Part shown: positions 34,588 to 64,000 of the stretch, in pieces
Numbering within the stretch: the stretch's first letter is position 1
Layout of the letters: every line of letters starts with the position of its first letter
NCBI GenBank assembly: GCA_965368975.1
Contig: CBDUPA010000001.1
Location: forward strand, 416,001 to 480,000
Direction of reading: 5' to 3'
Origin: an uncultured bacterium
GTDB lineage: Bacteria; Acidobacteriota; Thermoanaerobaculia; Multivoradales; JAHZIX01
DNA length: 64,000 bases
Notes under the pieces: generated by a model
The model's database searches: none
What the model was told of the DNA's origin: nothing
The model's input: only the letters and a program-made list of their open reading frames with translations
Translations under genes and position numbers: made by a program

Positions 34588-37110
34588 TCAGTCGTTCGCG
34601 CCGGCCTCGACGGCTGCGAGCTGACGGCGCAGGTCGTGCACTACCGGATGGTCGGCGCCGCGGATGCGCTCGGTGTCGGTGAGGAGCTGGCGCAGCAGTT
34701 CCGCGGCTTCGGTGCCGCGTGCCGGATCCAGGGCGACGATGTCGGCGATGTTGGCACGGTCGTCGAGCACGCGGGGATGGTCCGCGTCGAAGATCTGCAG
34801 GCGCCGGTCCAGGACCTCGCGGTAGAGGTCTTCGGCGGCGCGCAGATCTCCGCGATCCTGCTGCAGCCCGGCCAGGTTGCTCAGTGTCGTGAGGGTGGCG
34901 GAGTGGTCGTCGCCGAGCACGCGGCGGCGACTTTCGAGGGTCGCGCGCAGCAAGGGCTCGGCCTCGTCGAGGCGGCCAAGCTGGATCCAGACACTTCCCA
35001 GGTTGCTGGCCGCGTTCAGGCTGCGGGGGTGATCGGAACCCTGTTGCTGGCACGATGTCTCGTACACCTGACGGTAGAGGTCTTCGGCCTCTTCCAGCTG
35101 TCCCCGGCTGAACAGCACCGACGCCAGGTTGACACTGGCGGCCAGGGTGTCGGGGTGCTCGGCTCCCTGCACGCGGCGCCGGATCTCGAGGGCTTGGCGC
35201 AGCAAGGGTTCGGCTTCCTCGGCGCGCCCCTGGAAAAACAGCAGACTGGCCAGGTTGCCGGTGACGCCCAAGGTCTCCACATGGTCGTCACCGAGCTGCT
35301 GGCGGTGTTCGTCGAGCGCTTGGTGGAGCAGGGCCCCGGCATCGTCGTAGTGACCGCGTAACATCTGGAGGCGGGCCAGGCCGGCACGGGCGCGGGCTAC
35401 CTCGGCGAGCGCTGACGGGGCCGCCATGGTATCCAGGGCAGCGGCAGTGTCGAGGGCGGCCTGGTAGAGCGGCAGCGCGGCCTCGTACAGGCCCAGATTA
35501 CTGTACACACGTGCCATGGTGCGTTGCAGCCGTGCCTTGATCGCGGACGGCTCGGACAAGCGCTGGTCGATGTCGGCGCTGCCGCGGTCGAGAATCTCGC
35601 GGGCGGTGATGCTGTTGCCGCGCGCCTCGCTGGGGTCGGAGATGCGGAACAGGCCGCTCAGGAAGTCCGAGACCTCCAGCGCCACCGCCGCCTCGTGGTT
35701 GGCGCGGTCGCGCTCGGCGGCTAGGTGGGCCGACTGTGCGGCCAGGCGCCGGGACTGCACCGCGGTGACGGCGCTGAAGGTCACCAGGGCCAGCAGCAGT
35801 CCCGCAGCCAGGCCGACGGCGACGCGGTGCCGGCGCACGAAGGTGCGGGCGCGGTAACCCAGCGAGTCGGGACGCGCCGCGACGGTGCGACCAGCTCGGT
35901 AGCGCTGGAGGTCGTCGAGCAACTGTTCGACCGAGCCGTAACGCCGCTCGGGTTCCTTGCGCAGCGTCTTGAGCACGATGGCGCCCAGGTCGCCGCGCAG
36001 CTGCCGCGTCAGCCGTGACAGTGTGGTGCGGCGCTGGCGGGCGGTGTCGTCGTCCTGCACCGCGCGGTGAGGCCGGGTCGGCGGTTTCTCGCTGATCCTG
36101 CGCGCCCATTCCAGCGGAGAAGCCGCTTGTGGCGACGCGGATCCGCCCTGATCGTAGGGCGAGCGGCCAGTGAGTAGCAAGTAGAGCAGCAGACCGAGTT
36201 GGTAGACATCGGAGAGGGTGGTCACCGGTTCGCCCTGGAGCTGCTCGGGACTGGCGTAGGCCGGTGTCAGTGGCTGCGCGCCTCGGGTGAGTGCCTCGCC
36301 ACCGCCGTTGGCACCCCCGCCGCCCGTGCCGTCGTCGAGCAGGCGGGCGATGCCAAAGTCGAGCAGCTTGGGGTGACCGTCCGCGGTGACCAGGATGTTG
36401 GAGGGCTTGATGTCGCGGTGCACCACCAGGTTGCGGTGGGCGTACTGCACCACACGGGCGATGCGCTGGAACAAGTCGAGACGCTGGACGATGGTGAGCC
36501 GTTCACGGTCGCAGTACTGGTCGACCGGCACGCCGTCGACCAGCTCCATCACCAGGTATGGCCGGCCGTTACTCGGTTGGCCACTAGCCCGGGGGTCGTG
36601 GTCGATGCCACCGTCGAGCAGCCGCGCCATGTCCGGGTGACTGGCGCGCGCCAGGATCTGCCGCTCCTGCTCGAAGCGCCGCACCTGTTCCTGGCTGAGT
36701 GGGCCGAACAGCTGCTTGATCGCCACCTGCTGCTCGAAGTCGCCGTCGACGCGCTCGGCGCGGTAGACCACCGCCATGCCGCCGCGACCGACCTCTTCGA
36801 GCAAGCGGTAGCGGTCGATCACGCTGCCCGGCTGCCAGATCGCGGCCTGCGATTCGCTACCGGTCATCGTGTCGCTATCGCGTCCGCCCCGATCGAGCCC
36901 CCAGTCGAGTCCGCGCGCCGCATCGGCGCCCATGCCCGGGAGCAGCTCGCCGCCGCTGTCGCTGGCGTGACGGAGCAGACGTTGCACCAGCGACAGCAGA
37001 TCCGCGTCCTCACCGGCCGTGTGCCGCACGAAGGCGTCGCGCTCGGCCGCCGGCATGTCCAATGCCTGGACGAAAATCTCGTCCGCCCGCCGCCACTGCC
37101 GGTCATCCAC
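34588..37110 (-). CDS. Serine/threonine protein kinase with TM helix and TPR repeats
   Basis: GRGGMAVVY, VAIK, HRDIKPSN, DFG, YASPE; TM; kinesin-light-chain-like TPRs (LGDDH, HPDT); start overlaps sigma stop. Confidence 0.95.
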   Translation of the reverse strand: MDDRQWRRADEIFVQALDMPAAERDAFVRHTAGEDADLLSLVQRLLRHASDSGGELLPGMGADAARGLDWGLDRGGRDSDTMTGSESQAAIWQPGSVIDRYRLLEEVGRGGMAVVYRAERVDGDFEQQVAIKQLFGPLSQEQVRRFEQERQILARASHPDMARLLDGGIDHDPRASGQPSNGRPYLVMELVDGVPVDQYCDRERLTIVQRLDLFQRIARVVQYAHRNLVVHRDIKPSNILVTADGHPKLLDFGIARLLDDGTGGGGANGGGEALTRGAQPLTPAYASPEQLQGEPVTTLSDVYQLGLLLYLLLTGRSPYDQGGSASPQAASPLEWARRISEKPPTRPHRAVQDDDTARQRRTTLSRLTRQLRGDLGAIVLKTLRKEPERRYGSVEQLLDDLQRYRAGRTVAARPDSLGYRARTFVRRHRVAVGLAAGLLLALVTFSAVTAVQSRRLAAQSAHLAAERDRANHEAAVALEVSDFLSGLFRISDPSEARGNSITAREILDRGSADIDQRLSEPSAIKARLQRTMARVYSNLGLYEAALPLYQAALDTAAALDTMAAPSALAEVARARAGLARLQMLRGHYDDAGALLHQALDEHRQQLGDDHVETLGVTGNLASLLFFQGRAEEAEPLLRQALEIRRRVQGAEHPDTLAASVNLASVLFSRGQLEEAEDLYRQVYETSCQQQGSDHPRSLNAASNLGSVWIQLGRLDEAEPLLRATLESRRRVLGDDHSATLTTLSNLAGLQQDRGDLRAAEDLYREVLDRRLQIFDADHPRVLDDRANIADIVALDPARGTEAAELLRQLLTDTERIRGADHPVVHDLRRQLAAVEAGAND

Positions 37111-37720
37111 GCCGAGCGTCCCCCGCAGTTGCCGACATCTCCTCGCGCAGCCAGGCGCGGGCGCGGGCCCAGTCGCGCTGTACCGTGCGTTCGGACACGC
37201 CCAATGCCTCGGCCGTCTCGGGCTCGCTCAGGCCGGCGAAGTAGCGGCACTCGACGATGCGCACCAGGCGCGCGTCGCGTTTGCCCAGGCGTAGCAGAGC
37301 CTGTTCCAGGTCGAGCAGGTTTTCTGCTTGCTGATCGATGGCGATGTGGGCCGCTTCGTCCAGCGTCACTGGCCTCTGTTCGCCGCCGCGCTTGGCCGCC
37401 GAACCGCGGCGGGCGTAAGCGATGATGACCTGCCGCATGGCGCGCGCGGCAACGGCGAGGAAATGGCCACGATCTTGCCACTCAGCCCCCGCCTGGCCAG
37501 CCAGCTTGAAGTACGCCTCGTGGACGATGCCGGTGGCGCCGAGCGTGCGCCCCGACGGACCACGTCGCAAGTGCGAGCGCGCAATGCGGCGCAGGTCGTC
37601 ATAGACCAGCGGCACCAGCCGGTCGAAGGCGGCAGCGTCACCGGCGGCAAAGTCGTGCAAGAGCTGGGTGATGTCCTTGTCGTCGTGAGTGCGTGTGCGG
37701 TTGCTTTGATTTCTGGCCAT
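37103..37720 (-). CDS. ECF-type sigma factor (STK-associated, TIGR02999-like)
   Basis: ITQLL, LVYDDLRRIA, VHEAY, RHF-like GHFLAVAARAMR, AAKRGG, RDWARARAWL. Confidence 0.92.
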   Translation of the reverse strand: MARNQSNRTRTHDDKDITQLLHDFAAGDAAAFDRLVPLVYDDLRRIARSHLRRGPSGRTLGATGIVHEAYFKLAGQAGAEWQDRGHFLAVAARAMRQVIIAYARRGSAAKRGGEQRPVTLDEAAHIAIDQQAENLLDLEQALLRLGKRDARLVRIVECRYFAGLSEPETAEALGVSERTVQRDWARARAWLREEMSATAGDARRG

Positions 37721-49280: not shown

Positions 49281-51545
49281 CTACGGACAGGTCGCGAACG
49301 CCCGTGCGTCCGTGATCGCCGCCGCGGACGTACCCAGCGGGTTGAAGTACGTCATCTTCTCGCCGGTTTCCGTATCTGTGACCTCGATCACGTACTCGAC
49401 GTTCGTGGTCGCGCCAGCGAAGACCCAGTAGTGACCATTGTTGCCGCAGCCGTTGATGACTTTGACCAGCATCTCCCAGTTGGTCGACTGGAAGAACCAG
49501 AAGAGTCCCGAGTCACTGGTGCCTTCGGCGGCTACCTTGCCTTCGCCGATACGGTTGCCGAAGTCGCGCCAAGTGATCTTGACGCGGAAGCGGTCGTTGT
49601 TCAGGCACATCGTCGTGGCATCGGGCGTGCACAGCTCGGCTTCCGCCGGCGGTGCGCCGCCGAGCTCACCGCTGAAGTAGCGGTTGGCATGCTCGAACGC
49701 TTCGGGCCCGATCACTGCGCCCATCAGGCGGCCGGGGATGTCGTCGGCCGTCGGGTGGATGCCGCCGTAGATGCGCGAGATGCTGGTTTCGTCGGAGGCA
49801 TCCCGGTAGGTCGCCCACTGCAGCGTCACATCGACGCTCGGGCCTTCCTCGAACACCAGGAACTCGTTCTGCGGCGCCAGAAACTCACCTACACCACCCG
49901 GGAAGTAGGCGTCGCCGGTGAACAGGGTCATGACCTCGGCGGCAGCGCGCGAGTAGGTCGAGTGACCGGAGACGTAGCCGGCGAAGGGCGGCGTGACGAA
50001 GCTCGGGCGCTGGTAGGGCCACCAGTTCTCCGCCAGGATCCAATCGACGCCGGCGGTGTCGGTCTCGGGGTCGACGATGAAATCTGGGCCGCGCCAAGCG
50101 TAGATGGCGATCTTGCCGACGTTGCTGTTGGCGAAGCCGGCCAGGTGCTCGTGACGTTCTCCCGGCTGGACGCTCTGCTCGGTCACCAGCTCGATGACTC
50201 CGGGCTTGAGGGTGATGCCGTGCGGATCGTAGGAGGGAAGGCCGGGGTCAGAACTCTGGCCCTTGCCGGCCATGTAGCGGATGGCCGAGATGGGACGGAT
50301 GTAGTCGTACCAGCCCTTGGCGCCCCAAGCCGCGATCGCCACGTCGTGCATGGTGCCACCGAGCGTCAGGTACAGCTTGACGTCCCACTCCAGATCCGGC
50401 AACACCGGGCCGACACCTCCCAACTGCTTGACCACCTGCGGGTGATCCGAAACGTAGTTGGCGATGGTGAACCAGTGGCCGGGTGGAGTCTCGGAGTCCG
50501 GGCCGTCGGCCCAGAACTCGGCCAGCACGCGGTAGTAGTCACCGGCGGGGACAATCTGTGGCGTGTACGGTTGGCCGGTCGCCGGGTTGACGTCGTGGCC
50601 GTCGCCGTTGTTGGTGCCCAGATCGCTGTCACCGCGCGACGCTGGGCTGATGTCGATCATCACACCATCGGCGGGGTCGAGAAAGCCGCTCCACTCGACG
50701 ACTTGCTCGAAGCCAGTCTTGTACAGGGCGTCATCCTCGGTGCCGATGTACGGTGGTGGGCCTGGATCGTGGTAGACCCAGTATTCGAAGCCGTCGCGCT
50801 CGTAGATGGTGAGATCGTCCGAGCCGAGGGAGAAGGGGGTGACCTGGCCCCATTCCGGGCTCAGGAACTCCGGTGAGCCACCGGGGATGATGTTGCCACC
50901 CTGGTCGACGAAGAACTCGAGCGCTAGCGGCTGCCAGCGGTTGGGGTTGACGATGTCGCCGACGCCCGGCACTGCCGGTACGAGCGGCGGATTGATCGGT
51001 TCGTAGTACTGGTTTGCGAACTCCCCCCGCTCATTGGCGCCGTCGGAGAGGCCGAAGACGATGTAGGTCAGAGCGATGCGGTTGCCCAGCGCGGCCGCGG
51101 TGTTGCCCTGCGTCGAGGTGAACGACTTGTCGTACCCCAGCGCTGCCATGCGCGCGTCGAACGACGCCAGGGCCGTATCGTTTCCCGGCGAGCTGGCGAA
51201 GCGCCAGCGCAGCAGACGGTAGGCCGCGAAACTGATCGCTTCGTCCCGGTCCGCCGGGATGTTGGCCGAGGTCGCCTTCTCGTGGTGGAGGAACGTGCCG
51301 GCAGTCGCATCGTAGGCGGCCCAGGCGTCGTACATGGCGGCCGAGACGTGGAAGAGGTTGCGCGCGTGCGTCGTTGGTCGAGCCAGGTCGGTGCGGATGG
51401 CGTCGAGCAACTCGTCGTTCCACTGTCGCGCCACGGAGTGTTGAGCCTCGGCGGGCTGTGCGCCGATGGTCAGCGGTGCCAGCAGCAGCGCGAGTGCCAA
51501 CCATCCCGCGAGGCAGTTGAAGTTTTGACGGACGATTCTCTGCAT
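49281..51545 (-). CDS. Secreted vanadium-dependent haloperoxidase-like (PAP2 superfamily) protein with C-terminal accessory domain
   Basis: KGWYDYIRP, PPFAGYVSGHS, SRIYGGIH; signal peptide; AAGGAGG RBS. Confidence 0.9.
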   Translation of the reverse strand: MQRIVRQNFNCLAGWLALALLLAPLTIGAQPAEAQHSVARQWNDELLDAIRTDLARPTTHARNLFHVSAAMYDAWAAYDATAGTFLHHEKATSANIPADRDEAISFAAYRLLRWRFASSPGNDTALASFDARMAALGYDKSFTSTQGNTAAALGNRIALTYIVFGLSDGANERGEFANQYYEPINPPLVPAVPGVGDIVNPNRWQPLALEFFVDQGGNIIPGGSPEFLSPEWGQVTPFSLGSDDLTIYERDGFEYWVYHDPGPPPYIGTEDDALYKTGFEQVVEWSGFLDPADGVMIDISPASRGDSDLGTNNGDGHDVNPATGQPYTPQIVPAGDYYRVLAEFWADGPDSETPPGHWFTIANYVSDHPQVVKQLGGVGPVLPDLEWDVKLYLTLGGTMHDVAIAAWGAKGWYDYIRPISAIRYMAGKGQSSDPGLPSYDPHGITLKPGVIELVTEQSVQPGERHEHLAGFANSNVGKIAIYAWRGPDFIVDPETDTAGVDWILAENWWPYQRPSFVTPPFAGYVSGHSTYSRAAAEVMTLFTGDAYFPGGVGEFLAPQNEFLVFEEGPSVDVTLQWATYRDASDETSISRIYGGIHPTADDIPGRLMGAVIGPEAFEHANRYFSGELGGAPPAEAELCTPDATTMCLNNDRFRVKITWRDFGNRIGEGKVAAEGTSDSGLFWFFQSTNWEMLVKVINGCGNNGHYWVFAGATTNVEYVIEVTDTETGEKMTYFNPLGTSAAAITDARAFATCP

Positions 51546-52911: not shown

Positions 52912-55413
52912 TCAGTAAGTAATCTCGAGGCTGGGGACGTAGGAAGACTCACGGCTGTAGTACCAGAGCCCGACCGTGTCCGCCGCCGTCAGGCCGATCG
53001 TGTAGGTGCCGTTGCCCGTGACGATGCTACTGACGTCGAACTCCACCCACGTGCTGGCCGGCAAGGCGCCGGTAGCGTACTGGGTGTAGAAGTACAGCGG
53101 TGCGTTGTTCCAGGTGATCGTGTTCTCGCTCCAGCTCGTGTCCACGATCCAGTAGAGGCGTGAGCTGGGGAACGCCTTGGTGCCCGTACGGATACGCACC
53201 TTGGCTGACTGCACGGGCCGAGTGACACCGGAAACCGTGAACTTCAGGTAGCCGGAAGCGCCCAGACCGGACGACGCGCTGCGCACGGTGATGCTCGTGC
53301 TGGCGCCGTAGTTGCGGGTCGGTAGCGGCTGATAGACCCAGGCGTCGGAGATGACCGGGAAGCTCGCGCTTGTGATGTTGTTGATGTAGAACCGGCGGCT
53401 GAATACCTTGCTGGACCCGTGCACGTCCGTTGCGGTGGCGTAGAAGTAGTGCCAGCCGTTGGTGAACGCGTTGGTGTTGAGCGTGCCGCTCCAGCCGACG
53501 TAGGGGCAATTGGGGTCGTTCAGGTCACTGTGCGCGTTGCACACATCGGCCCTATGCGTGCCGTAGACGAAGCCACCGAGTGTCACCGGCGTGGTGTCGA
53601 CCTTGAAGGTCATCGAAGCGACTCCCGAGGCGTCCGTCGCCCAGCCGTGGGCGAAGAAGTTCCCAGAGACGACTTGCTGGTGCGTCGGACGATCGACGAA
53701 CAGCCGCGGCGGGTCGTTCTCGACCACGGTCACCCGGATCGTGTGCTGCGCCTTCTTGCCGCCGCTGTCCTGGACGGTGGCGGTCAGGAGGTGATCGCCT
53801 AGCGTCGTCAGTTGGACCGAGATCGGAGTGCCCGTGCCCAGAGTATTCTGCACGTCAGAGCGCCACTGCACAGAGGCGCCGAGGTTGCCGTTCTCTGGGT
53901 CACTGGCGCTGGCGGCCAGGGTGAAGGGGGTGTTGATCCGCACCGTCGCGTTGGCCGTCGGACTGGTGATCTGGACGCTCGGCACGGCGTTGCCGTTGCC
54001 CGTGCGCAGCCCGGCGTAGGTCGAGGCACGCCCGTTGGCGACACATGCGTTGAAGGAACCGCCGTTGGCGGCATTCGTGTCCTCGCCGATCGCCACGTTG
54101 TACGGGGACGGGCTCAGGTCGGGATTGGAGAAGTAGGGAATGCGGCTGCAGACGCCGCCGACCGTACCATTGCTGGTGCAACCCATGACACTTGCGCCCC
54201 GGTGCAAGACCTGGCCGGAAGTACCCAGACGTTCGAACACATAACCGTAGGCATACGGCTTGACCGGCGTCGAGGAGGCGAAGGGATCGCCACGGTCGTG
54301 CTGCAGGCCGAGGGTATGCCCGAACTCGTGAGCATACGTGTGATCCGCGAAGCCACAGCCCTGTTCGTAGGCCATGTAGGTCTGGTCGGTGAACAGCGTC
54401 GCCGTGCCCTGCAGAACCTCCTGGCCGCTACCGTTGAGGTGCGGCAGGAAGGCGATTCCACAGTTGTTGTTGGGGTTCGGCGGAATCATCAACGACACCA
54501 TGTCGGCACCATGGTCGGCACGCAGTCGCTCCACTTCGGGGCGACGGTTGTTGAGGTTCCACATCCAGTTGCGTGCTTGGCTAGCGGTCAACTGCCCGCT
54601 GGATGTCGGGTGTTCTTCGGTCAGAGGCCCGGCGTAGACCAGGTTGTAGGTGATCTTGACCTGGCTGTTGGCGAAGATCGTGTTGGCCATCGCGATGTCC
54701 AGGTTGATGGAATCGAGAGCCGCCTGCTCCTGAGGACCGACGAAGTCGGGCATGTAGAGCGCCAGCACGTCGAGCCGGTAGTTGGTGGCCGGGACATTGC
54801 AGGCATCTGCCTTCTCGGCGGCGATCAGCGGTGCCGTCTGCTGTTGCACAGCTTCGACGCCACAGCCGTCGTGCTGCGCGCCCTCCGTGCGCACCAGGCG
54901 ATGAATTCCGCCTGCCGCCGGCGTGATGTGGTAGTGCACACCTTCCGGTGTTTGCAGCGTCCCCATCACGCGCCCCTCGGTGTAGCTGAGCAAGACATAG
55001 CCGTTGCGCAGCGTAGCCTCGGCCTCGTTACGGCTGGATCTGGAATCGGCCTCTGCGTCCAGAATGCCGTACCAGCTGAAGTGATCTTCATCGACCTGGG
55101 TCCAGCGTGAGCGCAGGGCTTCCAGCGATGTTCCGCCCGGCACGTCGAGCGCGAGGCGCTCCGGGTTGAGGGCGAGCAGTTCGGAGTCCAGGTAGATGGC
55201 GAACTGCTCGGCGATATTCTGAACGGTGTAGCCAGCATCGTCCAGGTCCGCCTTGGCTGGGTTGAGGGTGTACAGCGGGGTGCTCGCTTGGGCCAGCAGA
55301 GCCGGGCCCGTGGACAGCGACGCGAAGAGGATGAAGGTGAGTCCGAGCGTCAGACGGAAAGTCCGGGCGCTGCGTGGTGGAGGTGGATACTTCGAGAAGG
55401 ATTTTGATTCCAT
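52912..55413 (-). CDS. Secreted reprolysin-like (M12) zinc metalloprotease with Ig-like and DNRLRE/CBM96-like C-terminal domains
   Basis: HEFGHTLGLQH, Met-turn SVMG, FSNP; PSVQITSP Ig domain; DAWV..NYG..YLKF C-terminal domain. Confidence 0.9.
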   Translation of the reverse strand: MESKSFSKYPPPPRSARTFRLTLGLTFILFASLSTGPALLAQASTPLYTLNPAKADLDDAGYTVQNIAEQFAIYLDSELLALNPERLALDVPGGTSLEALRSRWTQVDEDHFSWYGILDAEADSRSSRNEAEATLRNGYVLLSYTEGRVMGTLQTPEGVHYHITPAAGGIHRLVRTEGAQHDGCGVEAVQQQTAPLIAAEKADACNVPATNYRLDVLALYMPDFVGPQEQAALDSINLDIAMANTIFANSQVKITYNLVYAGPLTEEHPTSSGQLTASQARNWMWNLNNRRPEVERLRADHGADMVSLMIPPNPNNNCGIAFLPHLNGSGQEVLQGTATLFTDQTYMAYEQGCGFADHTYAHEFGHTLGLQHDRGDPFASSTPVKPYAYGYVFERLGTSGQVLHRGASVMGCTSNGTVGGVCSRIPYFSNPDLSPSPYNVAIGEDTNAANGGSFNACVANGRASTYAGLRTGNGNAVPSVQITSPTANATVRINTPFTLAASASDPENGNLGASVQWRSDVQNTLGTGTPISVQLTTLGDHLLTATVQDSGGKKAQHTIRVTVVENDPPRLFVDRPTHQQVVSGNFFAHGWATDASGVASMTFKVDTTPVTLGGFVYGTHRADVCNAHSDLNDPNCPYVGWSGTLNTNAFTNGWHYFYATATDVHGSSKVFSRRFYINNITSASFPVISDAWVYQPLPTRNYGASTSITVRSASSGLGASGYLKFTVSGVTRPVQSAKVRIRTGTKAFPSSRLYWIVDTSWSENTITWNNAPLYFYTQYATGALPASTWVEFDVSSIVTGNGTYTIGLTAADTVGLWYYSRESSYVPSLEITY

Positions 55414-55604: not shown

Positions 55605-55649
55605 CCTGGCTGAGTTGGGTCGAGGGCGGACTCGCGCTCGATCGACCTC

Positions 55650-55815
55650 TCTCACGCCTCGACTCCGAGCACCTGGAAGTTCGCTGCTTGCCCCGTTAGG
55701 ACGACCTTCAGTGGCGCTCTGAGTTTGGCCTTCAACTCAGCAATGCCGACGAGTGCCGGTGGGCGAGGTACGGTGCTCATGACTGGACGCTAGTCATTTA
55801 TGGCCAGGCTGGCAA
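55650..55815 (-). pseudogene. Internally deleted remnant of the Phd/VapC operon (promoter-operator + antitoxin 5' end joined to toxin 3' end)
   Basis: 55652-55694 matches 57239-57281; ~55722-55806 matches ~57878-57961. Confidence 0.85.
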
Positions 55816-55956
55816 AGCCGGGTGGGAGTCGAGCAGGCCAAACGTAAGGCCCCTTACTTGGCGAAAGCCCGCGTTTAAGAATGAAGAGATCGTTCGCAAC
55901 CAGAAGGTGGGCACGTGGGCATGGGTGTGTTGCCGTGCATGTATAGGAGACTTGAG

Positions 55957-57183
55957 ATGAAGAGACTGTTGATGTTTCGATTTTCGCCAGAAAGCTTCAC
56001 GGTGGCCCTGTGCTGGCTCTTGTGCCTTGCTACTCCGATGCCGATGTCTGCGACGGGTGCCAGTGACCTGTTTGTCACGACGGTGCCAGTGAGGCTGCAC
56101 CATCCGCCGAATCTCGGCTTCTCGATCGAGCGAGTGGCTTTTGCCTCGGCAACAGGCGACTGTTCCGCCGAGTTCGTCAACGCTCTGATCGAAGACTTCG
56201 TTCGCAACGACGTAGCCGTCATCGAGCGCACGAGCATAGAGCGCATTCTCGAAGAGCTCGACTTCTCAGCTTCGGACTATGTGCAAGCGTCTGCTGACCA
56301 GTCGTTGGGAAGCCTGTTGGGAGCGAGTGCCTTGGTCTTTGTCGATGTCCTGAGGTGTGCCGACGAGCAGAGCAAAACGTACAAGAGGACACGCACCAGG
56401 GACGGGTCCTATACGACCTTCTACTCGACGACGAAGTTCTACTTCAAGAGTTCTCTGCGCATCGTGGACACCTTGACAGGCCGCGTCTTTTCCTCCAACG
56501 TCGTCGAGAGTTTCCGCGAGGACACCAATAGTTCGAGAGACGGCTACCCTGAGTTTCCGTCTGCCTACGAACTCCATGATGCTGCAGTCGAGGAGGCGGC
56601 ATTCAAGGTTCACCAGATGTTCTTTCCCTGGACGCAGATCGAACGCCTGCGTTTCTACAAGGACAGGCGGTGCGGTCTCAAAGATGCGTACCGGTTGGTC
56701 GAGATCTCCGATATCGAGGGCGCCAAGGAGAAGTCCTTGGCGAATCTCGAAGAATGCCGAGCTCAGGGACGAGAGAAGTCCATCTCCCGGGCGCTCTACA
56801 ACGTTGGTATGACGCACTTTCTGCTGACGGAGTACGAGAACGCCTTGGCCTACTTCGAGGAAGCACACCGCGTACGGCCGAACTCTCGGACGACTGAGGC
56901 GGTGAATACCTGCAAACGTGCCATGCAGTTGGCGGAGGACATGGCGTCCTACGAGGCGTTGGTAGCGGAACGTGCAGCTGAAGGAGGGCAGTGGCAGCCT
57001 TCGGCCCTCGCAGCCGTAGTGGCTCAGGGGCGAGATACTGACGAGGGCTCCACGACTGAAGCTGCCTCGGAAGGCAACTCAGCAGCCGAGCGGCTGCAGA
57101 AGCTGAAAGCTCTCTTTGACCAGGGGTTGATTACTGAAGGGGAATATGACGCCAAGAGGGCAGACATCCTGTCTGATCTCTAG
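55957..57183 (+). CDS. CsgG/HfaB-like protein with TPR and C-terminal SHOCT domain
   Basis: VIERTSIERILEE, LGASALV, LRIVDT.TGRV; LYNVG TPR; ERLQKLKALFDQGLITEGEY..KRADIL SHOCT; AGGAG RBS. Confidence 0.8.
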   Translation: MKRLLMFRFSPESFTVALCWLLCLATPMPMSATGASDLFVTTVPVRLHHPPNLGFSIERVAFASATGDCSAEFVNALIEDFVRNDVAVIERTSIERILEELDFSASDYVQASADQSLGSLLGASALVFVDVLRCADEQSKTYKRTRTRDGSYTTFYSTTKFYFKSSLRIVDTLTGRVFSSNVVESFREDTNSSRDGYPEFPSAYELHDAAVEEAAFKVHQMFFPWTQIERLRFYKDRRCGLKDAYRLVEISDIEGAKEKSLANLEECRAQGREKSISRALYNVGMTHFLLTEYENALAYFEEAHRVRPNSRTTEAVNTCKRAMQLAEDMASYEALVAERAAEGGQWQPSALAAVVAQGRDTDEGSTTEAASEGNSAAERLQKLKALFDQGLITEGEYDAKRADILSDL

Positions 57184-57237: not shown

Positions 57238-57660
57238 TCACGCCTTGACTCCGAGCACCTGGAAGTTCGTTGCTTGCCCCGCGAGGGCCAGTTCTGCATC
57301 GTGCGTGGCCAGAATCAGTTCCGTGTTCGTCCGTTCCTGCCAAACCAGCGCACTCGCCAGGTGGATGGCATCGAGGGTGGCCAGGGTCGTGGGGAAAGGG
57401 AGAGAAGCACGGTCCAAGATTGCTGGTGTTGGTTCGACGACTTCGACGGTCTTCATCAATTGATAGACCAAGGCCCTCTTGCTCGCTAGGATCTTCTCGT
57501 CGAGCCGCGTGCGCTTCGACAGGCGATCCAGCGTTCGCAAGCACTCGACTTCGGTCAAGGCGCTGGTGACACCCTGAACCGTTCTGAAGTCGACGACCAG
57601 GGGATCAGCTTGCCCCAGGAGCCAGCGCAGGATGACCGAAGAATCCACGTAGAGGATCAT
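57238..57660 (-). CDS. vapC: PIN-domain (VapC family) toxin
   Basis: YVDSS, TEVE, TLDAIHLASA, THD acidic PIN motifs; ATGA overlap with antitoxin. Confidence 0.92.
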   Translation of the reverse strand: MILYVDSSVILRWLLGQADPLVVDFRTVQGVTSALTEVECLRTLDRLSKRTRLDEKILASKRALVYQLMKTVEVVEPTPAILDRASLPFPTTLATLDAIHLASALVWQERTNTELILATHDAELALAGQATNFQVLGVKA

Positions 57661-57935
57661 CGATGCTTCTGGCGCTCTTCGAGCAAGAGTTCGACGATGT
57701 CGATCTCGGTCTCGACAGGAGGTCCGAAGTCGAGATCGGCTAGAGAACTGCCCGGCAACGGTTTCCGGACGCGCAGCGGTTCTTCGCTCCGGTAGGGGGC
57801 CAATGTTGCGACAGGCTTGTCCCGGTCGGTGACCGTGATCCTCTCGCCAGCTCTGACGGCGTAAAGATAATGGCTTAGTTTGGCCTTCAGCTCGGCGATT
57901 CCGACAAGTGCCGGTGGACGAGGTACGATGCTCAT
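57657..57935 (-). CDS. Phd/YefM family antitoxin
   Basis: VGIAELKAKLSHYL..VRAGE.ITVTDR.KPVA.L.P. Confidence 0.92.
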   Translation of the reverse strand: MSIVPRPPALVGIAELKAKLSHYLYAVRAGERITVTDRDKPVATLAPYRSEEPLRVRKPLPGSSLADLDFGPPVETEIDIVELLLEERQKHR

Positions 57936-58029: not shown

Positions 58030-60360
58030 TCACAAGATCTCGACCTCCACAGGTCCCTTGATGCGCGCCATGCAGGCCAGGCGGCAGTCTTTGCCTTCCA
58101 GGCCGCACAGATCCTCCAGCGTCTCGACTTCGCCCGCCGCGGCTGGGGTCTCGACGTTCTCGAGGCCGGCGACGATGCGGATCGGGTCGCTGCCGCAGAT
58201 GCCGGAGTGGCACTCGGCGTTGATGCGGATGCCGTGCGCTTCGGCGACGTCGCACAGGGTTTGGCCGGGGAGCACCGGTAGCGGGCCGCCGTGACCGCGG
58301 AAGGTGACGCTGGGGCCATCCGGGGCTGGACTGCCAGCCGCGGGGGTGGCTGCGGGCTTGACTTCACTGACCGGTCTCGGTGGTGCCGGGCCGGAGGCGT
58401 CGAGGACGGCGTCGGGGTCCTGGCTGAAGGCCAGGTTTTGCTGGCCGAGCTGGAACTGGTCGCCGTGTTCGAGCTTGACGGCGCTGCGCACTCGGAGGTA
58501 AGTGCCATTGGCGCTCTTCAGGTCCTTGACCAGAACCCGCGCCTTCTGATCTGCCCCTCGCTCGACGGTCAGGGCGAGGTGGCGACGGGAGAGGGTGCCA
58601 TCCGGGCCGAGGGTGATGTCGGGGGCGCGGCGGCCGAGGACGAGGGTGCCGTTGGGGAGAGGGTGCTGGCCGATCTCTCTGCCTTCGGCGTCGAAGTGAC
58701 GCAGAACCAGGTCTCCGTGCAGGTTGCCGGTGGCATCGGCGTCGGCGAGGAGCAGGAACTGGCGGCCGGCGCGCAGCAGGTCGCCGGCTTCGAGGGGCAG
58801 CTTGCGGCGGGCCGGGACGCGCAGGAAGACGCCGGTGTTGGAGCCGTCGTCGCGCAGGAAGGTACCTTCGTCGGTGGCGGCGATGGAGGCGTGGCGATTG
58901 CTGAGCAAGGGGTCGGCGGGGAAGTTGAGGTCGCAGTCCTGACGGCCGAAGGTGACGACACTACCGGGGGCGATCGGGTGTTCTTCGCCCTGGACGTTGC
59001 CGGGCAAGAGTTGCACGATGGCGGCGTAGCTGTCGGCCGGGTGCTCTCCGGCCGGTTCGGTGGCGCCGGCCGCTTCCAGGGCTTCGGCGAGGTCCTCGCG
59101 CTCGAGCCGGGAGGTGGAGGTCGCGACGCTGGTGCGGCCGAGGTGGGCGACGGGAGACTCGGCGGCGCCTTCGAGGTCGTCGGCGTCAGCGACGGTGAGG
59201 TCGATGTCGCTCTTACCCTCGAGGCGTTGGCGCACCACCTGGGCGATCAGGACGCCGTCGCGCAGCGCACTCTTGATGTTGCCACGGTGGCGGATCTCGC
59301 GGAAGCCGGCGGGGTCGGCGTCGAAGTCGTCGGTCTCGAAGTAGGCCTGGCTGAGGATGTCGCCGGCCAGGTAGACGTGGGGCAGGGCCGTCTCGAGGTA
59401 GCGGTTGGTGACCATGCGCTTGCGGTTCTTGGGGCCGCCGGTGACCATGGCGATGCCGAACGAGGCGAGCAGGCTCTCGGGGATGTCCTCGCCGATGCAG
59501 GCGATGCAGCTGTCCTTGGGGAATTCGAGGTGCGACGTCTCGGCGGGGCGTCCTTCCATCTTGCGGCGATCGACCCGCACGGCGAGGTACTCCTGGCGAT
59601 CGTCGCCGACCAGCACGGCGGCGGGCTCGCTGTTCGGGTAGTAGCGGATGTTGCCGTTCCCGACGTAGGCCTCGAAGAAGACTTCGGCCAGGGCCTTGGA
59701 TACCCGGGGCATCTTGTCGCCGCGGTAGGACCAGTAGATGGCGCTGGGGTCGCTGGCCTGGGCCTTGGCGTGTGAGATGGCGATGACGGCTTCGGCGGCC
59801 GAGGTGCCGCCGCCGAGGATGCAGGTGGGGCGGCCGACGTAGGTGGCGGGGTCGTCGAGACGGTGCGGGATGCCCTCGGTGTTGCCGGGGATGTCGAAGC
59901 GGCGCGGCACGCCGCGGCCAATGGCGAGCACGACGTGGCGGGCCAGCAGGCAGCCGTCGCAGCGCTGGCCGTGGTCCCAGATCGACGCCTCGTAGATGTC
60001 GTGGCCGCGGGCATCCGGGCGGCGGCTCAGACCGGTCAGCTCGATGCCCAGCCGGCGCGGCACGGCGCCGCGGCCGTAGTGCCCCTTCCAGGTGGCGCAC
60101 ATGTCGTCTTTGTCGATCGGTGAGAAGCGTAGCGCGTCGATCAGCTCGCCGCCACGGGGGAAGCGCATGCGGTCGCCGCCGCCGAAGCTGGGCAGGATGA
60201 GCTTGTCCTTGGAGTAGTCGCGGATGCGCTTCATCAGGTCGTCGTATTCGATCACCAGCGCATCCAGCCCCAACTCGCGAGCACGAAAGGCAGCGGCGGT
60301 GCCGGCGGGGCCACCACCGACGATCAGCAGGTCCAGGACGTGTTCGGTCGGCGCACTCAT
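58030..60360 (-). CDS. Thioredoxin-reductase-like FAD/NAD(P) oxidoreductase fused to two FHA domains and a 2Fe-2S ferredoxin
   Basis: IVGGGPAG, ILGGGTSA, YLAGD; FHA motifs FGR..SNRHA..SNTG and LGR..SRRH..SANGT; CHSGICGSD...CRLAC. Confidence 0.88.
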   Translation of the reverse strand: MSAPTEHVLDLLIVGGGPAGTAAAFRARELGLDALVIEYDDLMKRIRDYSKDKLILPSFGGGDRMRFPRGGELIDALRFSPIDKDDMCATWKGHYGRGAVPRRLGIELTGLSRRPDARGHDIYEASIWDHGQRCDGCLLARHVVLAIGRGVPRRFDIPGNTEGIPHRLDDPATYVGRPTCILGGGTSAAEAVIAISHAKAQASDPSAIYWSYRGDKMPRVSKALAEVFFEAYVGNGNIRYYPNSEPAAVLVGDDRQEYLAVRVDRRKMEGRPAETSHLEFPKDSCIACIGEDIPESLLASFGIAMVTGGPKNRKRMVTNRYLETALPHVYLAGDILSQAYFETDDFDADPAGFREIRHRGNIKSALRDGVLIAQVVRQRLEGKSDIDLTVADADDLEGAAESPVAHLGRTSVATSTSRLEREDLAEALEAAGATEPAGEHPADSYAAIVQLLPGNVQGEEHPIAPGSVVTFGRQDCDLNFPADPLLSNRHASIAATDEGTFLRDDGSNTGVFLRVPARRKLPLEAGDLLRAGRQFLLLADADATGNLHGDLVLRHFDAEGREIGQHPLPNGTLVLGRRAPDITLGPDGTLSRRHLALTVERGADQKARVLVKDLKSANGTYLRVRSAVKLEHGDQFQLGQQNLAFSQDPDAVLDASGPAPPRPVSEVKPAATPAAGSPAPDGPSVTFRGHGGPLPVLPGQTLCDVAEAHGIRINAECHSGICGSDPIRIVAGLENVETPAAAGEVETLEDLCGLEGKDCRLACMARIKGPVEVEIL

Positions 60361-60382
60361 GGTCGTCTCCGTACTCTCGTGC

Positions 60383-61327
60383 TCAGGTCGACGGCTCAGC
60401 GATGGGCAGCAGCCAGCCTTCGACGGCGCCGAAGCGCAGGCGGCTGCTGAGGGGGATCTCGACGGTGTCTTCGATCTGCACGTCGTTGACGTAGGTGTGG
60501 TTGCGGCTGCCCTCGTCGCGCACGTGCAGGACGCCGTCGCCGACGGTCAGGGTGGCGTGGCGGCGCGACAGGTTGAGGCTCTCCAGCTGGATGCCGGCTT
60601 CGTTGCCGCGGCCGATCAGGTTGTCGCCGAAGTGCAAGCGGAAGCGCCGGCTCGGCTGGTCGCTGTCGGTGAGCACCAGGTAGAAGGGGGCCGGGACGAG
60701 GTCTTGCACAGCGTCCGCCGCGGTGGCCTCTTGCACGGGGGCTGCTGCGCCGGGTTCTTGCGCTGAGTCCTCTGCCGCGATGGGGGGAGCCTTGTCCACC
60801 ACGAAGGCACTCGGAAGCGCCATCGGCAGGGCTTCGTACTCGGTCTTCTCATGTGCCTCGACGTCGGCCTCGTCAGCGGGCTTGGTGGCACCGGGCAGGC
60901 TGGGCGGCAGGATCAGCGGGCTGGACTCGAAGACGGTGCGCTCGGCCTCCGGGATGTCGGCCTCGGGTTGGCGGGTCGAGGGTTGCGGCGCTGCGGAGGC
61001 CACCGGCTGGCGGCCTTGACGCAAGGCGGTGAGCTGGAAGTCCTGGAAGATGAAGTCCGCGTCCGCGAAGGTGATGACGTGCAGGTGGCCGAGGGCTTCG
61101 GCGCCCTGGATGCGCTCGCCGTCGAGGCGGGTGCCGTTGCGGCTGCCAAGATCTTCGAGCAGGTAGCAGCCGCGTACGGGGTCGAAGCGGATGCGCGCGT
61201 GCTTGCCGGAGACGGCGTCGCGGCCGAGGGGGATGGTGTTGTCCGGGTGACGGCCGATCGTGGTCTCGCCGGTGATCGGGTACTCTCCCTGGTCGGTTCC
61301 GGTCTTGCGCAGCAGGCGGGCGGGCAT
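60383..61327 (-). CDS. Double-FHA domain protein
   Basis: IGR..SGKHA..DLGSRNGT and IGR..SRRHA..SRNHT joined by an acidic Pro/Ala linker. Confidence 0.9.
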   Translation of the reverse strand: MPARLLRKTGTDQGEYPITGETTIGRHPDNTIPLGRDAVSGKHARIRFDPVRGCYLLEDLGSRNGTRLDGERIQGAEALGHLHVITFADADFIFQDFQLTALRQGRQPVASAAPQPSTRQPEADIPEAERTVFESSPLILPPSLPGATKPADEADVEAHEKTEYEALPMALPSAFVVDKAPPIAAEDSAQEPGAAAPVQEATAADAVQDLVPAPFYLVLTDSDQPSRRFRLHFGDNLIGRGNEAGIQLESLNLSRRHATLTVGDGVLHVRDEGSRNHTYVNDVQIEDTVEIPLSSRLRFGAVEGWLLPIAEPST

Positions 61328-61360
61328 GGTGTTACCTCTCGAGGAGCGGCGATCCGGTCG

Positions 61361-62983
61361 TCAGTTCAGGTACAGCAGCAGGTTGGACTGCCGGCTCTTG
61401 TCCGGGTGGAAGAGGTGGCAGGTGGTGCAGCTGGAGGCGACGGTACTCGGTCGGTGGCACTCGCGGCAGGTCTCGATGTGCGGCAGGTTGGTGATCTGGG
61501 CACCGTCGCGGCTGGCGAACTCTTCGGGCACGGTCTCGGCGGTCGGCGGGATCTGTTCCAGGGCTTCGAGAATCGGGATTTCGGTATGGCAGTCCAGGCA
61601 GCGACGCTGCACGATGTGGGCGCGGTGGTTGAATTCAGCGCGGCGCAGGCGGCGCTGGTCTTTCTGTACGCGCGCGATGGTGGCGCGGTCGAGCTGGTGG
61701 CAATTGCGGCAGGGCTGTGTCAGGTCTGCAGCTACCTGGTTCAGCTCGGCGGTGCGCTCGGCGCTGAGCGCTGGATTGGGCTCGGCCAGGGCGAGCAGGA
61801 ACTCGGTTTCGTCGAGCGGCGTGAAGGGATCGCGCAGGGCCCGACGCAGGTTGCGCAGCAGCACGTCGACGCGAGCCAGCTCTGTCTGGATCTCGGGTTC
61901 CGGCCGGTCGCGCAGGCCGGCGGCCTGGGCTTCGAGCGCGTCGATGGCTTCTTCGTAGAGCACGTGCTGATCCCCGTCGGGTGTCGCGGTCGACGCCTTG
62001 AGCAGGTCGGCGAGGCCGCCGTCGACGTAGAGCTGACGGCGCAGCTGGCGCAGGTTGTACAGGATCCACGGGTCCTCGTGGTGCAGCGTGGTCTTGGTGA
62101 CGCGGCTGCCAGCCTGGCGGAACTCGCTTTCGCTGGCGTAGCGCAGCCACTCGGCGTCCGGACCACCGCGGGCGCGGATGGTGGCCAGGGTTTCGACGCC
62201 CGGTGGATCGTCGCCCGCGAGGGCGGCTGTGCCCACGGGCAGCCTCGGCGTCGCCACGCCGGTGTCGAGGTGGCAGGCGTCGCAGTGACGGTCGAAGTCG
62301 ATGGACTGGAAGTTGCGACCATCGGGCTGCGGGTTGTGGCAGTAGAGGCAGGAGACCTCGACGTCGACCAGTTGTTGCTCTTTCATCACCTCGCGCACGT
62401 GGCGAATGTGCGGGAAGCTGAGGTTGGTGTCGTCGGGGCGGTTCTCGACAGCGAAGTCGAACTGCGGATGGCCACCACCGCCCGCGTTGTTGGCGAAGCG
62501 GCCGGCGTCGTGGCAGACGATGCACTGGGCGTCGCGCACCTGGGTGAGCTGGGCGTCGCGGCCGCCGTGTTCAGTATGGCAGCTGGCGCAGGGCATCTCG
62601 TGCTCGTGGGGCACCAGGCGTTGGAAGTCGTCGCTGCGGTAGAGGTAGTGCGAGGCGAAGCTGAAGGTACCGAGGTCGTCGCCGACTTTCTCGTGGCAGC
62701 TGGCGCAGTTCTGGTCGGCGACGGCGTCGAAGCCGCTGTGGCAGGCGGCGCAGTCCTGGCTCAGCGTCGCGTGCGCGGACGACAACGGACCTCGCGTCAC
62801 GAGACTGGGACCTCGCAGCCACGCCACGAGGCTGAACAACACGACCAGCACGACGGCAGCCAGCAGGCCGTAGGCGAGCAGCCGGTCGCGCTTGTCGGCG
62901 GGGTGCTTGCCGGGGTAGAGGTAGCCCTGGCTGATCGGTAGCCTGACCTTGCCGAAGATGCCTTTGTGGGTGTCGTTTTTCAT
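61361..62983 (-). CDS. Membrane-anchored multiheme c-type cytochrome (10 CxxCH, c3-like)
   Basis: CAACH, CASCH x2, CIVCH, CLYCH, CDACH, CRNCH, CLDCH, CRECH, CTTCH; FxHxxH motifs; N-terminal TM. Confidence 0.92.
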   Translation of the reverse strand: MKNDTHKGIFGKVRLPISQGYLYPGKHPADKRDRLLAYGLLAAVVLVVLFSLVAWLRGPSLVTRGPLSSAHATLSQDCAACHSGFDAVADQNCASCHEKVGDDLGTFSFASHYLYRSDDFQRLVPHEHEMPCASCHTEHGGRDAQLTQVRDAQCIVCHDAGRFANNAGGGGHPQFDFAVENRPDDTNLSFPHIRHVREVMKEQQLVDVEVSCLYCHNPQPDGRNFQSIDFDRHCDACHLDTGVATPRLPVGTAALAGDDPPGVETLATIRARGGPDAEWLRYASESEFRQAGSRVTKTTLHHEDPWILYNLRQLRRQLYVDGGLADLLKASTATPDGDQHVLYEEAIDALEAQAAGLRDRPEPEIQTELARVDVLLRNLRRALRDPFTPLDETEFLLALAEPNPALSAERTAELNQVAADLTQPCRNCHQLDRATIARVQKDQRRLRRAEFNHRAHIVQRRCLDCHTEIPILEALEQIPPTAETVPEEFASRDGAQITNLPHIETCRECHRPSTVASSCTTCHLFHPDKSRQSNLLLYLN

Positions 62984-62984
62984 G

Positions 62985-63716
62985 TCAGTAGTAGAGGACC
63001 GCGGCGATGTGGATCAGCACCAGGACCATCAGCACGACGGTCGGCGGCACGTGCAGCAGCAACCAGCCGCGCAGGGCCCACTGCAACGTGTAGTGTGCGT
63101 CGAGAGCCAGCTTGGCGCGGTAGATGCGTTCGAGCTCGCTCAGCCGGGCGCGGTCGTCGTCGCTCAGCAGTTCGTTCAGGTAGTCGGCCTCACGCAGGCG
63201 CGCGGCGCTGCCGCCGCTGATGTCGAGGAAGAAGGAAGCGTTGCGGTTCGGCGCTTCGAGGGCCGGCGCGACGCGGCGGCTGTACAGCGCCTGCACCGGG
63301 CCGCCGCAGCGCGACGCCAGGCGCGCGGCGCGCCGACGCAGATCTTCGACCAGTTCGGGAATGCGCTCGTAGGGGGCTTCCACCGGCAGACCGGCCAGGG
63401 TCACCGGCAGCCAGCGCTGCAAGGCGAGGCCGACGATGCCGCTGAGCACCGTCCAGACGGCGAGTAGCCACAGCGCCCACGACAGGCCGCCGCTGGGCAA
63501 GGAGAAGTCGCTGTGCCAGAGCAGCAGGAGCAGGAAGAGCGAACCGGCCGCCAGATGCAGCCAGAGCCAGGTGCGAGCGCTGCCCAGCTTGCGCCGGGTC
63601 GCCCAGCCCATGGCACGACGGCGGGCACTGTAAAGGCCGGCGAGCACCAGCAGCGCGGTGGCCAGGATGCCGGTGAACACGGGCAGGCTGATGCCGAGCG
63701 AGTCGAGCACGTTCAT
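62985..63716 (-). CDS. Integral membrane protein with His in TM helices (cytochrome b/ferric-reductase-like)
   Basis: YSARRR, WLWLH..G, LLWH, SGIVG, WLLLHVP, LIHI; ATGA overlap with the upstream gene. Confidence 0.78.
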   Translation of the reverse strand: MNVLDSLGISLPVFTGILATALLVLAGLYSARRRAMGWATRRKLGSARTWLWLHLAAGSLFLLLLLWHSDFSLPSGGLSWALWLLAVWTVLSGIVGLALQRWLPVTLAGLPVEAPYERIPELVEDLRRRAARLASRCGGPVQALYSRRVAPALEAPNRNASFFLDISGGSAARLREADYLNELLSDDDRARLSELERIYRAKLALDAHYTLQWALRGWLLLHVPPTVVLMVLVLIHIAAVLYY

Positions 63717-64000
63717 GTCATCAGTTTCCGGATGTCGTCCACCGAGCCGAGGCGGAAGGCACAGCCCTGAGGACAGTTGGAGACGCAGGCCGGGTCGTGG
63801 CCAGTCTCGTGACTGGTGTCGTGGCAGAGGTCGCACTTGCTGGCTACCAGGCGGCGCTCGCCGCGCAGCGCGACGGGGACCATGTCGTCGGGCCACTGCT
63901 CGCCGGTGTCGTGCATGACGATGGCATCGTAGGGGCAGTTGTTGGCGCAGGTGCTGCAGCCGATGCAGATCTCGTCCTCGACGTCGACTACCTGGCCGAT
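63713..64000 (-). CDS. 4Fe-4S dicluster protein, C-terminal part (runs off the window)
   Basis: Open frame to the edge: CIGCSTCANNCPYDAI...KCDLC...PACVSNCPQG. Confidence 0.88.
   Translation of the reverse strand: MGQVVDVEDEICIGCSTCANNCPYDAIVMHDTGEQWPDDMVPVALRGERRLVASKCDLCHDTSHETGHDPACVSNCPQGCAFRLGSVDDIRKLMT

Follow-up and report, generated by a model that had tools for sequence, protein, structure and literature searches.

FHA proteins joined to a PCC4/Ptd-type electron-transfer gene cluster of an uncultured acidobacterium suggest an input gated by threonine phosphorylation

According to the main text of He et al. 2017 (PMC5566968), PCC4 clusters encode a porin, cytochromes with 4, 5 and 10 hemes and an inner-membrane protein with an SGxxG motif and two Wx3Hx13H motifs; in subgroup II, a PF13247 gene lies upstream of the inner-membrane protein gene. 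The ptdABCDEFG cluster, as described in the text of Elbon et al. 2024 (bioRxiv 10.1101/2023.11.21.568154), appears to have the same layout and includes PtdE (cyclic-nucleotide (cNMP) domain and Fe-S), PtdF (a ferric-reductase-like membrane protein) and PtdG (a decaheme cytochrome). PCC4/Ptd clusters are widespread yet functionally uncharacterised. Here, we describe a variant made up of five genes, A to E, which combines such a redox core with forkhead-associated (FHA) domains. The genes are located at the end of a 64,000-nucleotide stretch of DNA (the window) from an uncultured member of the Acidobacteriota (assembly GCA_965368975.1, contig CBDUPA010000001.1, positions 416,001 to 480,000). An earlier note made from this DNA had treated the cluster as undescribed, but its redox core matches the published, uncharacterised PCC4 and Ptd clusters.

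The balance tips slightly towards the view that the five genes encode that half of a PCC4/Ptd-type conduit which lies in the inner membrane and the cytoplasm, with an electron input that would be controlled by threonine phosphorylation. The domains, cofactor motifs, gene linkage and gene fusions behind this view are observed in sequence and synteny. The features were as follows.

63713..64000, minus strand: A, C-terminal 95 residues, PtdE-like/PCC4 Fe-S subunit (Fer4 matches)
62985..63716, minus strand: B, inner-membrane protein of 243 residues, predicted di-heme b (PtdF/PCC4 inner-membrane protein; His motifs)
61361..62983, minus strand: C, membrane-anchored periplasmic decaheme cytochrome c of 540 residues, PtdG-like (10 CxxCH, one N-terminal helix)
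60383..61327, minus strand: D, FHA-linker-FHA adaptor (two Pfam FHA domains)
58030..60360, minus strand: E, whole gene, Pyr_redox_2, two FHA and Fer2 domains (Fer2 with E 0.0011, narrowly short of the curated cut-off)
59206..60360, minus strand: E flavin domain, thioredoxin reductase (TrxR) fold without CxxC, of the Bdr/YpdA or TrxR-type FNR class (NADPH-type motif)
58741..58998, minus strand: E FHA1, degenerate (Arg in 104/120, Ser in 70/120 and Asn in 6/120 homologs)
58420..58683, minus strand: E FHA2, predicted intact phospho-Thr pocket (R577, S591, R592 and R593 in 120/120, N618 in 119/120)
58030..58308, minus strand: E C-terminal [2Fe-2S] domain, inferred 3Cys-1Asp ligation (C717, C722, D725, C763)

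All five open reading frames (ORFs) were on the minus strand in the order A-B-C-D-E, ending at 58030, with spacings of -4, 1, 33 and 22 bp between A/B, B/C, C/D and D/E, respectively. The anatomy given in the earlier note, a tight minus-strand packing of Fe-S, membrane, 10-heme, FHA-FHA and flavin-FHA-FHA-[2Fe-2S] genes, was correct, as borne out by the ORF positions and domain hits. A single scan of genomes, for which an alignment of B was the query, yielded 162 relatives, and locus counts refer to the best 80 of these, so that the sample represents this clade rather than the whole family. ABCDE was the commonest gene order (34 of 80 loci, automatic gene calls), which argues that the order in the window is not due to chance; the remaining loci were mostly ended by a contig edge or carried A-B fusions. 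The nearest named homologs were for the most part from Acidobacteriota, many of them Thermoanaerobaculia, and Sulfidibacter corallicola (locus L008) is a cultured host with the whole operon. A plasmid collection searched with B and with E gave no match to either.

The PCC4/Ptd features of the window were both Wx3Hx13H motifs and the SGxxG motif, the Fe-S gene directly upstream of the inner-membrane protein gene, and the decaheme gene downstream. As far as PCC4 subgroup II is described in the main text of He et al., it shares with the locus this motif set, the PF13247 Fe-S gene directly upstream of (and sometimes fused to) the inner-membrane protein gene, and the decaheme cytochrome; relatives of the locus also encode a pentaheme cytochrome, a porin and a C554-type cytochrome. 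The order A-B-C matches ptdEFG, and the homolog stated for PtdA, T. tepidum cytochrome c552 (bioRxiv 10.1101/2023.11.21.568154), is also what the pentaheme cytochrome of the relatives matches (PDB 5ZE8, E 1.8e-11; the 5ZE8 family is broad). In contrast to the PCC4 clusters of the main text, the tetraheme cytochrome of the relatives was doubled to 7–8 hemes or had a 3-CxxCH form, the redox gene was downstream and FHA-fused rather than upstream of the tetraheme gene, and the taxa were different (Acidobacteriota, Bacteroidota, KSB1 and others). Two clusters are stated for PtdE, whereas A homologs had four Cys motifs, and PtdC is flavohemoprotein-like, whereas E, compared with it by description only, combines a TrxR fold with FHA and [2Fe-2S] domains. 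In the related loci, no conserved gene was found at the PtdC-type position between porin and tetraheme genes; the flavin enzyme was downstream and of the TrxR fold. Because the position and type of PtdC were not matched and the published proteins were compared by description only, the locus is called a variant working like PCC4/Ptd.

FHA and forkhead do not occur in the text of Elbon et al., and the main text of He et al. mentions neither these nor cyclic nucleotides; the text of its supplement gave 0 hits for FHA or Pfam identifiers, and FHA could possibly be present in its tables and in Supplementary Fig. 4, on how the domains of the redox genes are arranged, which were unreadable. Fusions of FHA to a cytochrome have been described in a nonaheme cytochrome cluster of Ferrigenium (bioRxiv 10.64898/2026.01.22.701106) and as a Gallionellaceae 'Forkhead-associated protein' with 10 CxxCH motifs in 27 of 87 genomes (PMC9900912). 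From these descriptions, both share with our locus an Fe-S protein, a 5-helix membrane protein and an anchored multiheme cytochrome with FHA on the cytoplasmic side. They differ in that FHA is on the cytochrome; the section on Ferrigenium mentions neither a kinase or phospho-site nor a flavin-FHA enzyme, and its authors saw no redox motif in the membrane protein. The redox core and the FHA–cytochrome fusion are therefore already known, and the regulatory layer appears to be new. In a full-text literature search, the flavin-FHA-FHA-[2Fe-2S] enzyme, the linkage to kinase and PP2C genes, the Thr motifs and the lost cNMP site were undescribed, with the limit that subscription papers, bioRxiv supplements and Supplementary Fig. 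4 of He et al. could bear on this.

The phospho-Thr (pThr)-binding residues expected of pThr readers were intact in E-FHA2 and in both FHA domains of D, which are therefore predicted to bind pThr, whereas E-FHA1 failed at Asn, a part of the conserved pThr-binding pocket. In D, G-R, S-x-x-H and N were kept in both domains; among the D homologs, FHA1 had Arg in 25/48 and Lys in 18/48, and FHA2 was intact in 46–47 of 48. The pocket Arg and Ser have been shown to be essential in a type VI secretion system (T6SS) FHA protein (PMC3953482). The top Foldseek matches of the flavin domain of E were Bdr (7A76) and FNR (3AB1). E shares with Bdr/YpdA and the TrxR-type FNRs the fold and the missing CxxC pair, and differs in its low identity (approximately 19–20%; 60.6 bits with the YpdA model against a cut-off of 339.9) and its fusion to FHA-FHA-[2Fe-2S]. 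As CxxC was absent from the NADPH domain at the TrxR site (0/120 homologs), a true thioredoxin reductase was rejected as an identity for E. R213 was invariant in the 120 homologs, and FHA was carried by 119 of the 120 top homologs of the flavin domain, a set from which a length filter excludes stand-alone flavin domains. The [2Fe-2S] site reads Cys-x4-Cys-x2-Asp...Cys, with Asp as the third ligand; the four residues were conserved in 43/43 and in 118/120 homologs (the other two have gaps), and the Asp ligand may tune the potential of the cluster. The structure model of E (pLDDT 80.6, pTM 0.48) had flexible linkers. In one relative (L047, 13301-17540), E was split into two ORFs by an intervening ORF on the opposite strand.

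A synteny survey had been set as a test of whether FHA and redox genes are conserved together, and they are: among the 54 loci whose sequence extends 3.6 kb or more past the downstream end of the core, D was present in 47, E in 43, both in 42 and either in 48, across approximately 10 phyla, while six loci had the core without D or E. The supposed link to a kinase also gained syntenic support in the relatives. In 23 of 44 loci, a Hanks-type kinase gene was either the adjacent gene or part of the operon, as compared with 7 kinases in 265 kb of other flanking sequence, and a gene that its motif marks as a probable PP2C phosphatase followed E in 14 of 80 loci. The kinases of five loci in which they were convergent and next to or near the operon (L001, L003, L007, L027 and L058) had HRD and no literal DFG. 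Of 150 representatives, 8 carried an FHA domain on A itself, and in 5 of these its motif was intact; in Sphingobium, a degenerate FHA domain was part of the cytochrome. Together with Gallionellaceae, these fusions indicate that the FHA link to the redox module recurs in several architectures.

This linkage bears on a reading in which the conduit is constitutive and serves respiration or electron uptake, from an outside donor via porin, cytochromes and B to the quinone pool, with E as an independent Bdr-/FNR-like enzyme and D and E as co-regulated neighbours. Uptake towards the quinone pool was the direction proposed for PCC4 by He et al., whose main text also discusses quinone-active cytochrome b-like motifs of the kind found in B and reports a subgroup I from which the Fe-S gene is absent altogether (PMC5566968). 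The six loci without D or E and the action of the closest solved relatives of E on soluble substrates are also in line with it. Nevertheless, we consider it quite unlikely, given that D and E were kept in the operon across so many phyla, that FHA is fused to A or to C in other lineages, and that Thr motifs are enriched in A.

Candidate phospho-sites were found in D and A. The linker of D in the window had two R/K-T-x-hydrophobic motifs (T131 and T162), and D homologs carried 1–5 Thr motifs of their own. In the extracted D linkers (42 of 48), K/R-T-x-hydrophobic motifs numbered 84, against 11.1 ± 3.2 in shuffles, with a search pattern chosen after the linkers had been viewed. With the same pattern, 51 motifs (7.1 ± 2.6 in shuffles) were counted in the insert of the first cNMP domain of A (41 of 68 extracted), and the linkers of E showed no enrichment. 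These motifs in A and D resemble E-K-pT-S-I-V, the proven, crystallised ligand of the DgcB FHA domain (PMC6733907). In the N-terminal tail of A, a Thr ten residues before a conserved D-R-W was present in 39 of 43 FHA-bearing and in 1 of 6 FHA-less loci, with 11 loci of unknown FHA status and 8 unanchored rows set aside.

The Thr motifs of D would also fit a brake of the GarA/OdhI type, in which unphosphorylated D (or an FHA domain of E) is bound to the chain and inhibits it until phosphorylation of the linker folds D on itself, the contact between E and A being independent of phosphorylation. D has the FHA domains and Thr motifs needed, DgcB and OdhI have been proven to bind their own tails (PMC6733907), and D matched the OdhI model with 60.9 bits, far below the 200-bit cut-off. 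Such a brake would leave unexplained the Thr motifs of A and, since the linkers of E itself have no motif, the invariant pocket of E-FHA2. We regard it as very unlikely in place of the phosphorylation-controlled input; the two can coexist.

The 5' end of A and its cNMP domains lie beyond the window edge, and results on the latter are from homologs. A of the window was 72–77% identical to the C-terminus of full-length homologs of approximately 550 residues. The earlier note had called A a 4Fe-4S dicluster protein; four [4Fe-4S] clusters are predicted instead, from the four Cys motifs in 64 of 65 full-length homologs. The cyclic-nucleotide-binding domain that it had mentioned for such Fe-S proteins is real, as the full-length homologs have two cNMP-fold domains. 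In domain 1, the phosphate-cassette Arg was replaced by Gln in 60 of 62 A proteins of the loci and in 13/13 clade representatives, and the Arg motif was found in domain 2 in 0/8, whereas the Arg was kept in 113 of 126 distant relatives. The A homologs of this clade thus lack a hallmark of canonical cNMP receptors given in the text of bioRxiv 10.1101/2024.04.23.590730, where domains without the cassette Arg are described as unresponsive to cAMP.

A and B were joined in one continuous ORF at 6 loci whose sequence has no Ns, and likewise in 6 of the 150 distant representatives. In a homologous trio of genes on the Sphingobium herbicidovorans plasmid pMSHV, a TrxR-fold flavin domain, a distant homolog of that of E (hhalign 96.9%, E 1.5e-10, 24% identity), was fused to the N-terminus of an A with intact cNMP sites. 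Among the 54 longest of the 150 representatives, N-terminal fusions to A comprised TrxR-fold domains in 2, an FNR-type domain in 1 and [2Fe-2S]/[4Fe-4S] domains in at least 5, so that the N-terminus of A behaves as a socket for electron-input modules. The Fe-S region of the cNMP-Fe-S subunit had 4,940 hits at E<=1e-25, not all of which are necessarily in PCC4/Ptd-type clusters. A complex prediction with A (15-563) and E (440-787) of Sulfidibacter scored 0.00 in both runs and has no bearing either way; phospho-Thr could not be represented.

Two cNMP-fold sensor domains kept with an altered pocket are also what would be expected if the same conduit carried a signal. Through the wire, with a small electron flux, A would then sense how reduced or oxidised the periplasm or medium is, its cNMP-fold domains would change shape, and D and E would relay this to the kinase network. 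An HbpS-like heme/redox protein in one upstream variant and the kinases that remain linked even without local FHA genes would also fit, and many of the hosts (Salinibacter, Rhodothermales, Sphingobium) are not known to respire metals. On the other hand, E combines a complete flavoenzyme of the NADPH type and a ferredoxin in one protein, conserved at 65–76% identity, and the repeated fusion of flavin and Fe-S input modules to the N-terminus of A suggests catalytic throughput; signalling in this direction therefore appears unlikely.

B of the window had 4 hydrophobic helices with His54, His68, His222 and His236 in the motifs W50-x3-H54-x13-H68 and W218-x3-H222-x13-H236, and SGxxG at 92. The four His were invariant in a 45-row alignment; both Wx3Hx13H motifs were found in 110 and strict SGxxG in 87 of 115 homologs. 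Five helices are usual, and are also given for the inner-membrane protein of PCC4 subgroup II in the main text of He et al.; the first of them is missing from the protein, as it is from a 94%-identical homolog of equal length. Most homologs were approximately 30 residues longer at the N-terminus, and 47 of 102 had 5 helices when these were counted crudely from hydropathy. No Pfam or NCBIfam family, including PF01794 (ferric reductase), matched B of the window. Its structure model (pLDDT 94.6) aligned with the designed di-heme protein 4D2 (Z 9.4, root-mean-square deviation (rmsd) 2.5, 103 residues), Dcytb (Z 8.0, rmsd 3.8, 137 residues), FdnI (Z 7.9) and SpNOX (Z 7.2), all within the helical-bundle background; Foldseek against PDB found nothing at E<=0.001, and the top VIA-align rows were chemoreceptor bundles with rmsd 8–9. 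The predicted binding of two hemes b thus rests on the motifs, the His spacing of which is compatible with the membrane domain of ferric reductase (FRD)/NOX proteins. A mere scaffold role was rejected in view of the four invariant His in cytochrome-b spacing.

C had exactly 10 CxxCH motifs, arranged 6+4, and 10 hemes were found in 66 of its full-length relatives (74-member cluster). Upstream of the core, genes of a pentaheme/porin/7–8-heme set were found in 32 of the 80 loci, genes of an alternative set in 33 and neither in 15, mostly contig ends. The pentaheme, porin and 7–8-heme genes occurred together with A and C in 22 loci, 21 of which had D or E. The porin call is based on a porin-like structure (ESM Atlas, TM 0.85) and a barrel-type C-terminus, and the C554-type module was either doubled (7–8 CxxCH) or single (3 CxxCH). 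The alternative set consisted of an HbpS-like protein, a second porin-like protein, a decaheme cytochrome of approximately 1,240 residues with LVIVD repeats and a triheme cytochrome (examples are L017 1-8090, L052 and L081 17215-25179); its different porin-like gene and large decaheme gene were present in 18 loci, and it also adjoins the Sphingobium trio. No description of this module was found in the literature search. In L060 (1-330), the end of a canonical [2Fe-2S] ferredoxin ORF was observed upstream of the 7-heme gene, the position of the PCC4 redox gene. A distant pentaheme homolog on a Nitratiruptor plasmid (L082, 5556-12288) was accompanied by porin, ferritin, imelysin and FTR1 genes; this iron-uptake context led us to reject it as a PCC4 locus and possibly hints at the role of the pentaheme family.

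Taken together, the FHA–redox linkage, the intact pThr residues, the syntenic kinase and phosphatase genes and the real cNMP domain make the kinase-gated conduit of the earlier note the best reading of the locus; what did not stand is its novelty at the level of the core. For its working we infer cofactor binding, phosphorylation, binding partners, outward flow and terminal acceptor. E would oxidise NADPH at FAD and pass single electrons via its [2Fe-2S] cluster to A with its four [4Fe-4S] clusters. A would sit on B, the two b hemes of which would carry electrons across the membrane to C, and from there the products of the upstream genes (tetraheme-type and pentaheme cytochromes, porin) would take them further. 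The path from NAD(P)H proposed in the earlier note probably continues past the periplasm, where that note had ended it, to an outer-membrane porin. Being encoded separately, E would attach to A only after a Hanks-type kinase has phosphorylated the Thr motifs of A; E-FHA2 would bind the phosphorylated Thr in the N-terminal tail or the cNMP-domain insert of A, PP2C would reverse this, and D, with its two FHA domains and own Thr motifs, would act as a scaffold or competing buffer. By our own reasoning, electrons moving outward would run downhill in terms of redox potential and be assisted by the membrane potential, so that a tight gate would be useful.

More tentatively, and with somewhat less than even confidence, the locus may be seen as an NADPH-to-outside wire assembled on demand: a flavoenzyme of a type that in Alphaproteobacteria forms one protein with the Fe-S subunit and is gated by cNMP would have been split from A and re-attached by an FHA–phosphothreonine contact, through which a membrane kinase and PP2C would switch electron flow across the envelope. 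The phagocyte NADPH oxidase and the T6SS, both assembled in response to phosphorylation, are parallels. By analogy of function, the closest system appears to be the T6SS PpkA/PppA/Fha-TssL switch, in which a subunit of the inner-membrane complex is bound by FHA at a pThr of its N-terminal tail, and kinase, phosphatase and FHA protein are likewise co-encoded with a trans-envelope machine (PMC3953482). As described there, that machine is for secretion, has no redox parts and shows no other homology to the cluster.

Several observations weigh against the proposed phosphorylation-controlled conduit. The window had no adjacent kinase or phosphatase gene, the nearest kinase being approximately 21 kb away; loci with co-oriented kinase and PP2C genes mostly belonged to one Bacteroidota/Ignavibacteriota/Chlorobiota clade, in Acidobacteriota a kinase was adjacent in 6 of 18 loci and mostly convergent, and an adjacent kinase was retained in 4 of 6 FHA-less loci. 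On a tree of A (60 rows, tail excluded), the 6 FHA-less loci represent only 3 independent losses of FHA, 2 of which are accompanied by loss of the tail Thr, and 4 FHA-bearing loci lack the Thr as well, so that the Fisher p of 0.0004 for their association is an overstatement. The insert motif was kept in all 3 FHA-less loci with an extracted insert, and the pattern for the linkers of D was fixed after the fact. The cNMP Arg was also lost in a sister group and retained in FHA-fused relatives of A, so that the family as a whole shows no clean swap. Lastly, the fold matches of B are not decisive for a helical bundle.

Downstream of E, the window carried a Phd/YefM and PIN toxin–antitoxin pair (57238-57935, minus strand). 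An internally deleted second copy of its two ends (55635-55817; 99 nt at 84% and 66 nt at 89%) was found approximately 2 kb further on, and the two copies flank a gene for a CsgG-TPR-SHOCT protein (55915-57183, plus strand). This protein weakly resembles (E 1e-7) the TPR/CsgG proteins encoded after the kinase in Bacteroidota-type operons, probably through shared domains only. As they were not conserved beside E, the toxin–antitoxin pair and the CsgG-TPR gene were rejected as members of the system. The window also encoded an M12 metallopeptidase with CBM96 (52912-55413, minus strand), a vanadium-haloperoxidase-like protein (DUF6851, VCPO_2nd; 49281-51545, minus strand) and its sole Ser/Thr kinase match (34591-37227, minus strand).

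To the PCC4/Ptd clusters, this variant adds NADPH as the likely donor in the cytoplasm, a physical route, indicated by the Fe-S–membrane and flavin–Fe-S fusions, and a candidate switch with named residues. If the proposed control is true, Ser/Thr phosphorylation would directly gate electron transfer across the cell envelope. It would suggest that PCC4/Ptd clusters are regulated, signal-linked oxidoreductases rather than plain wires for metal respiration, and would change how metagenomes are read for extracellular electron transfer.

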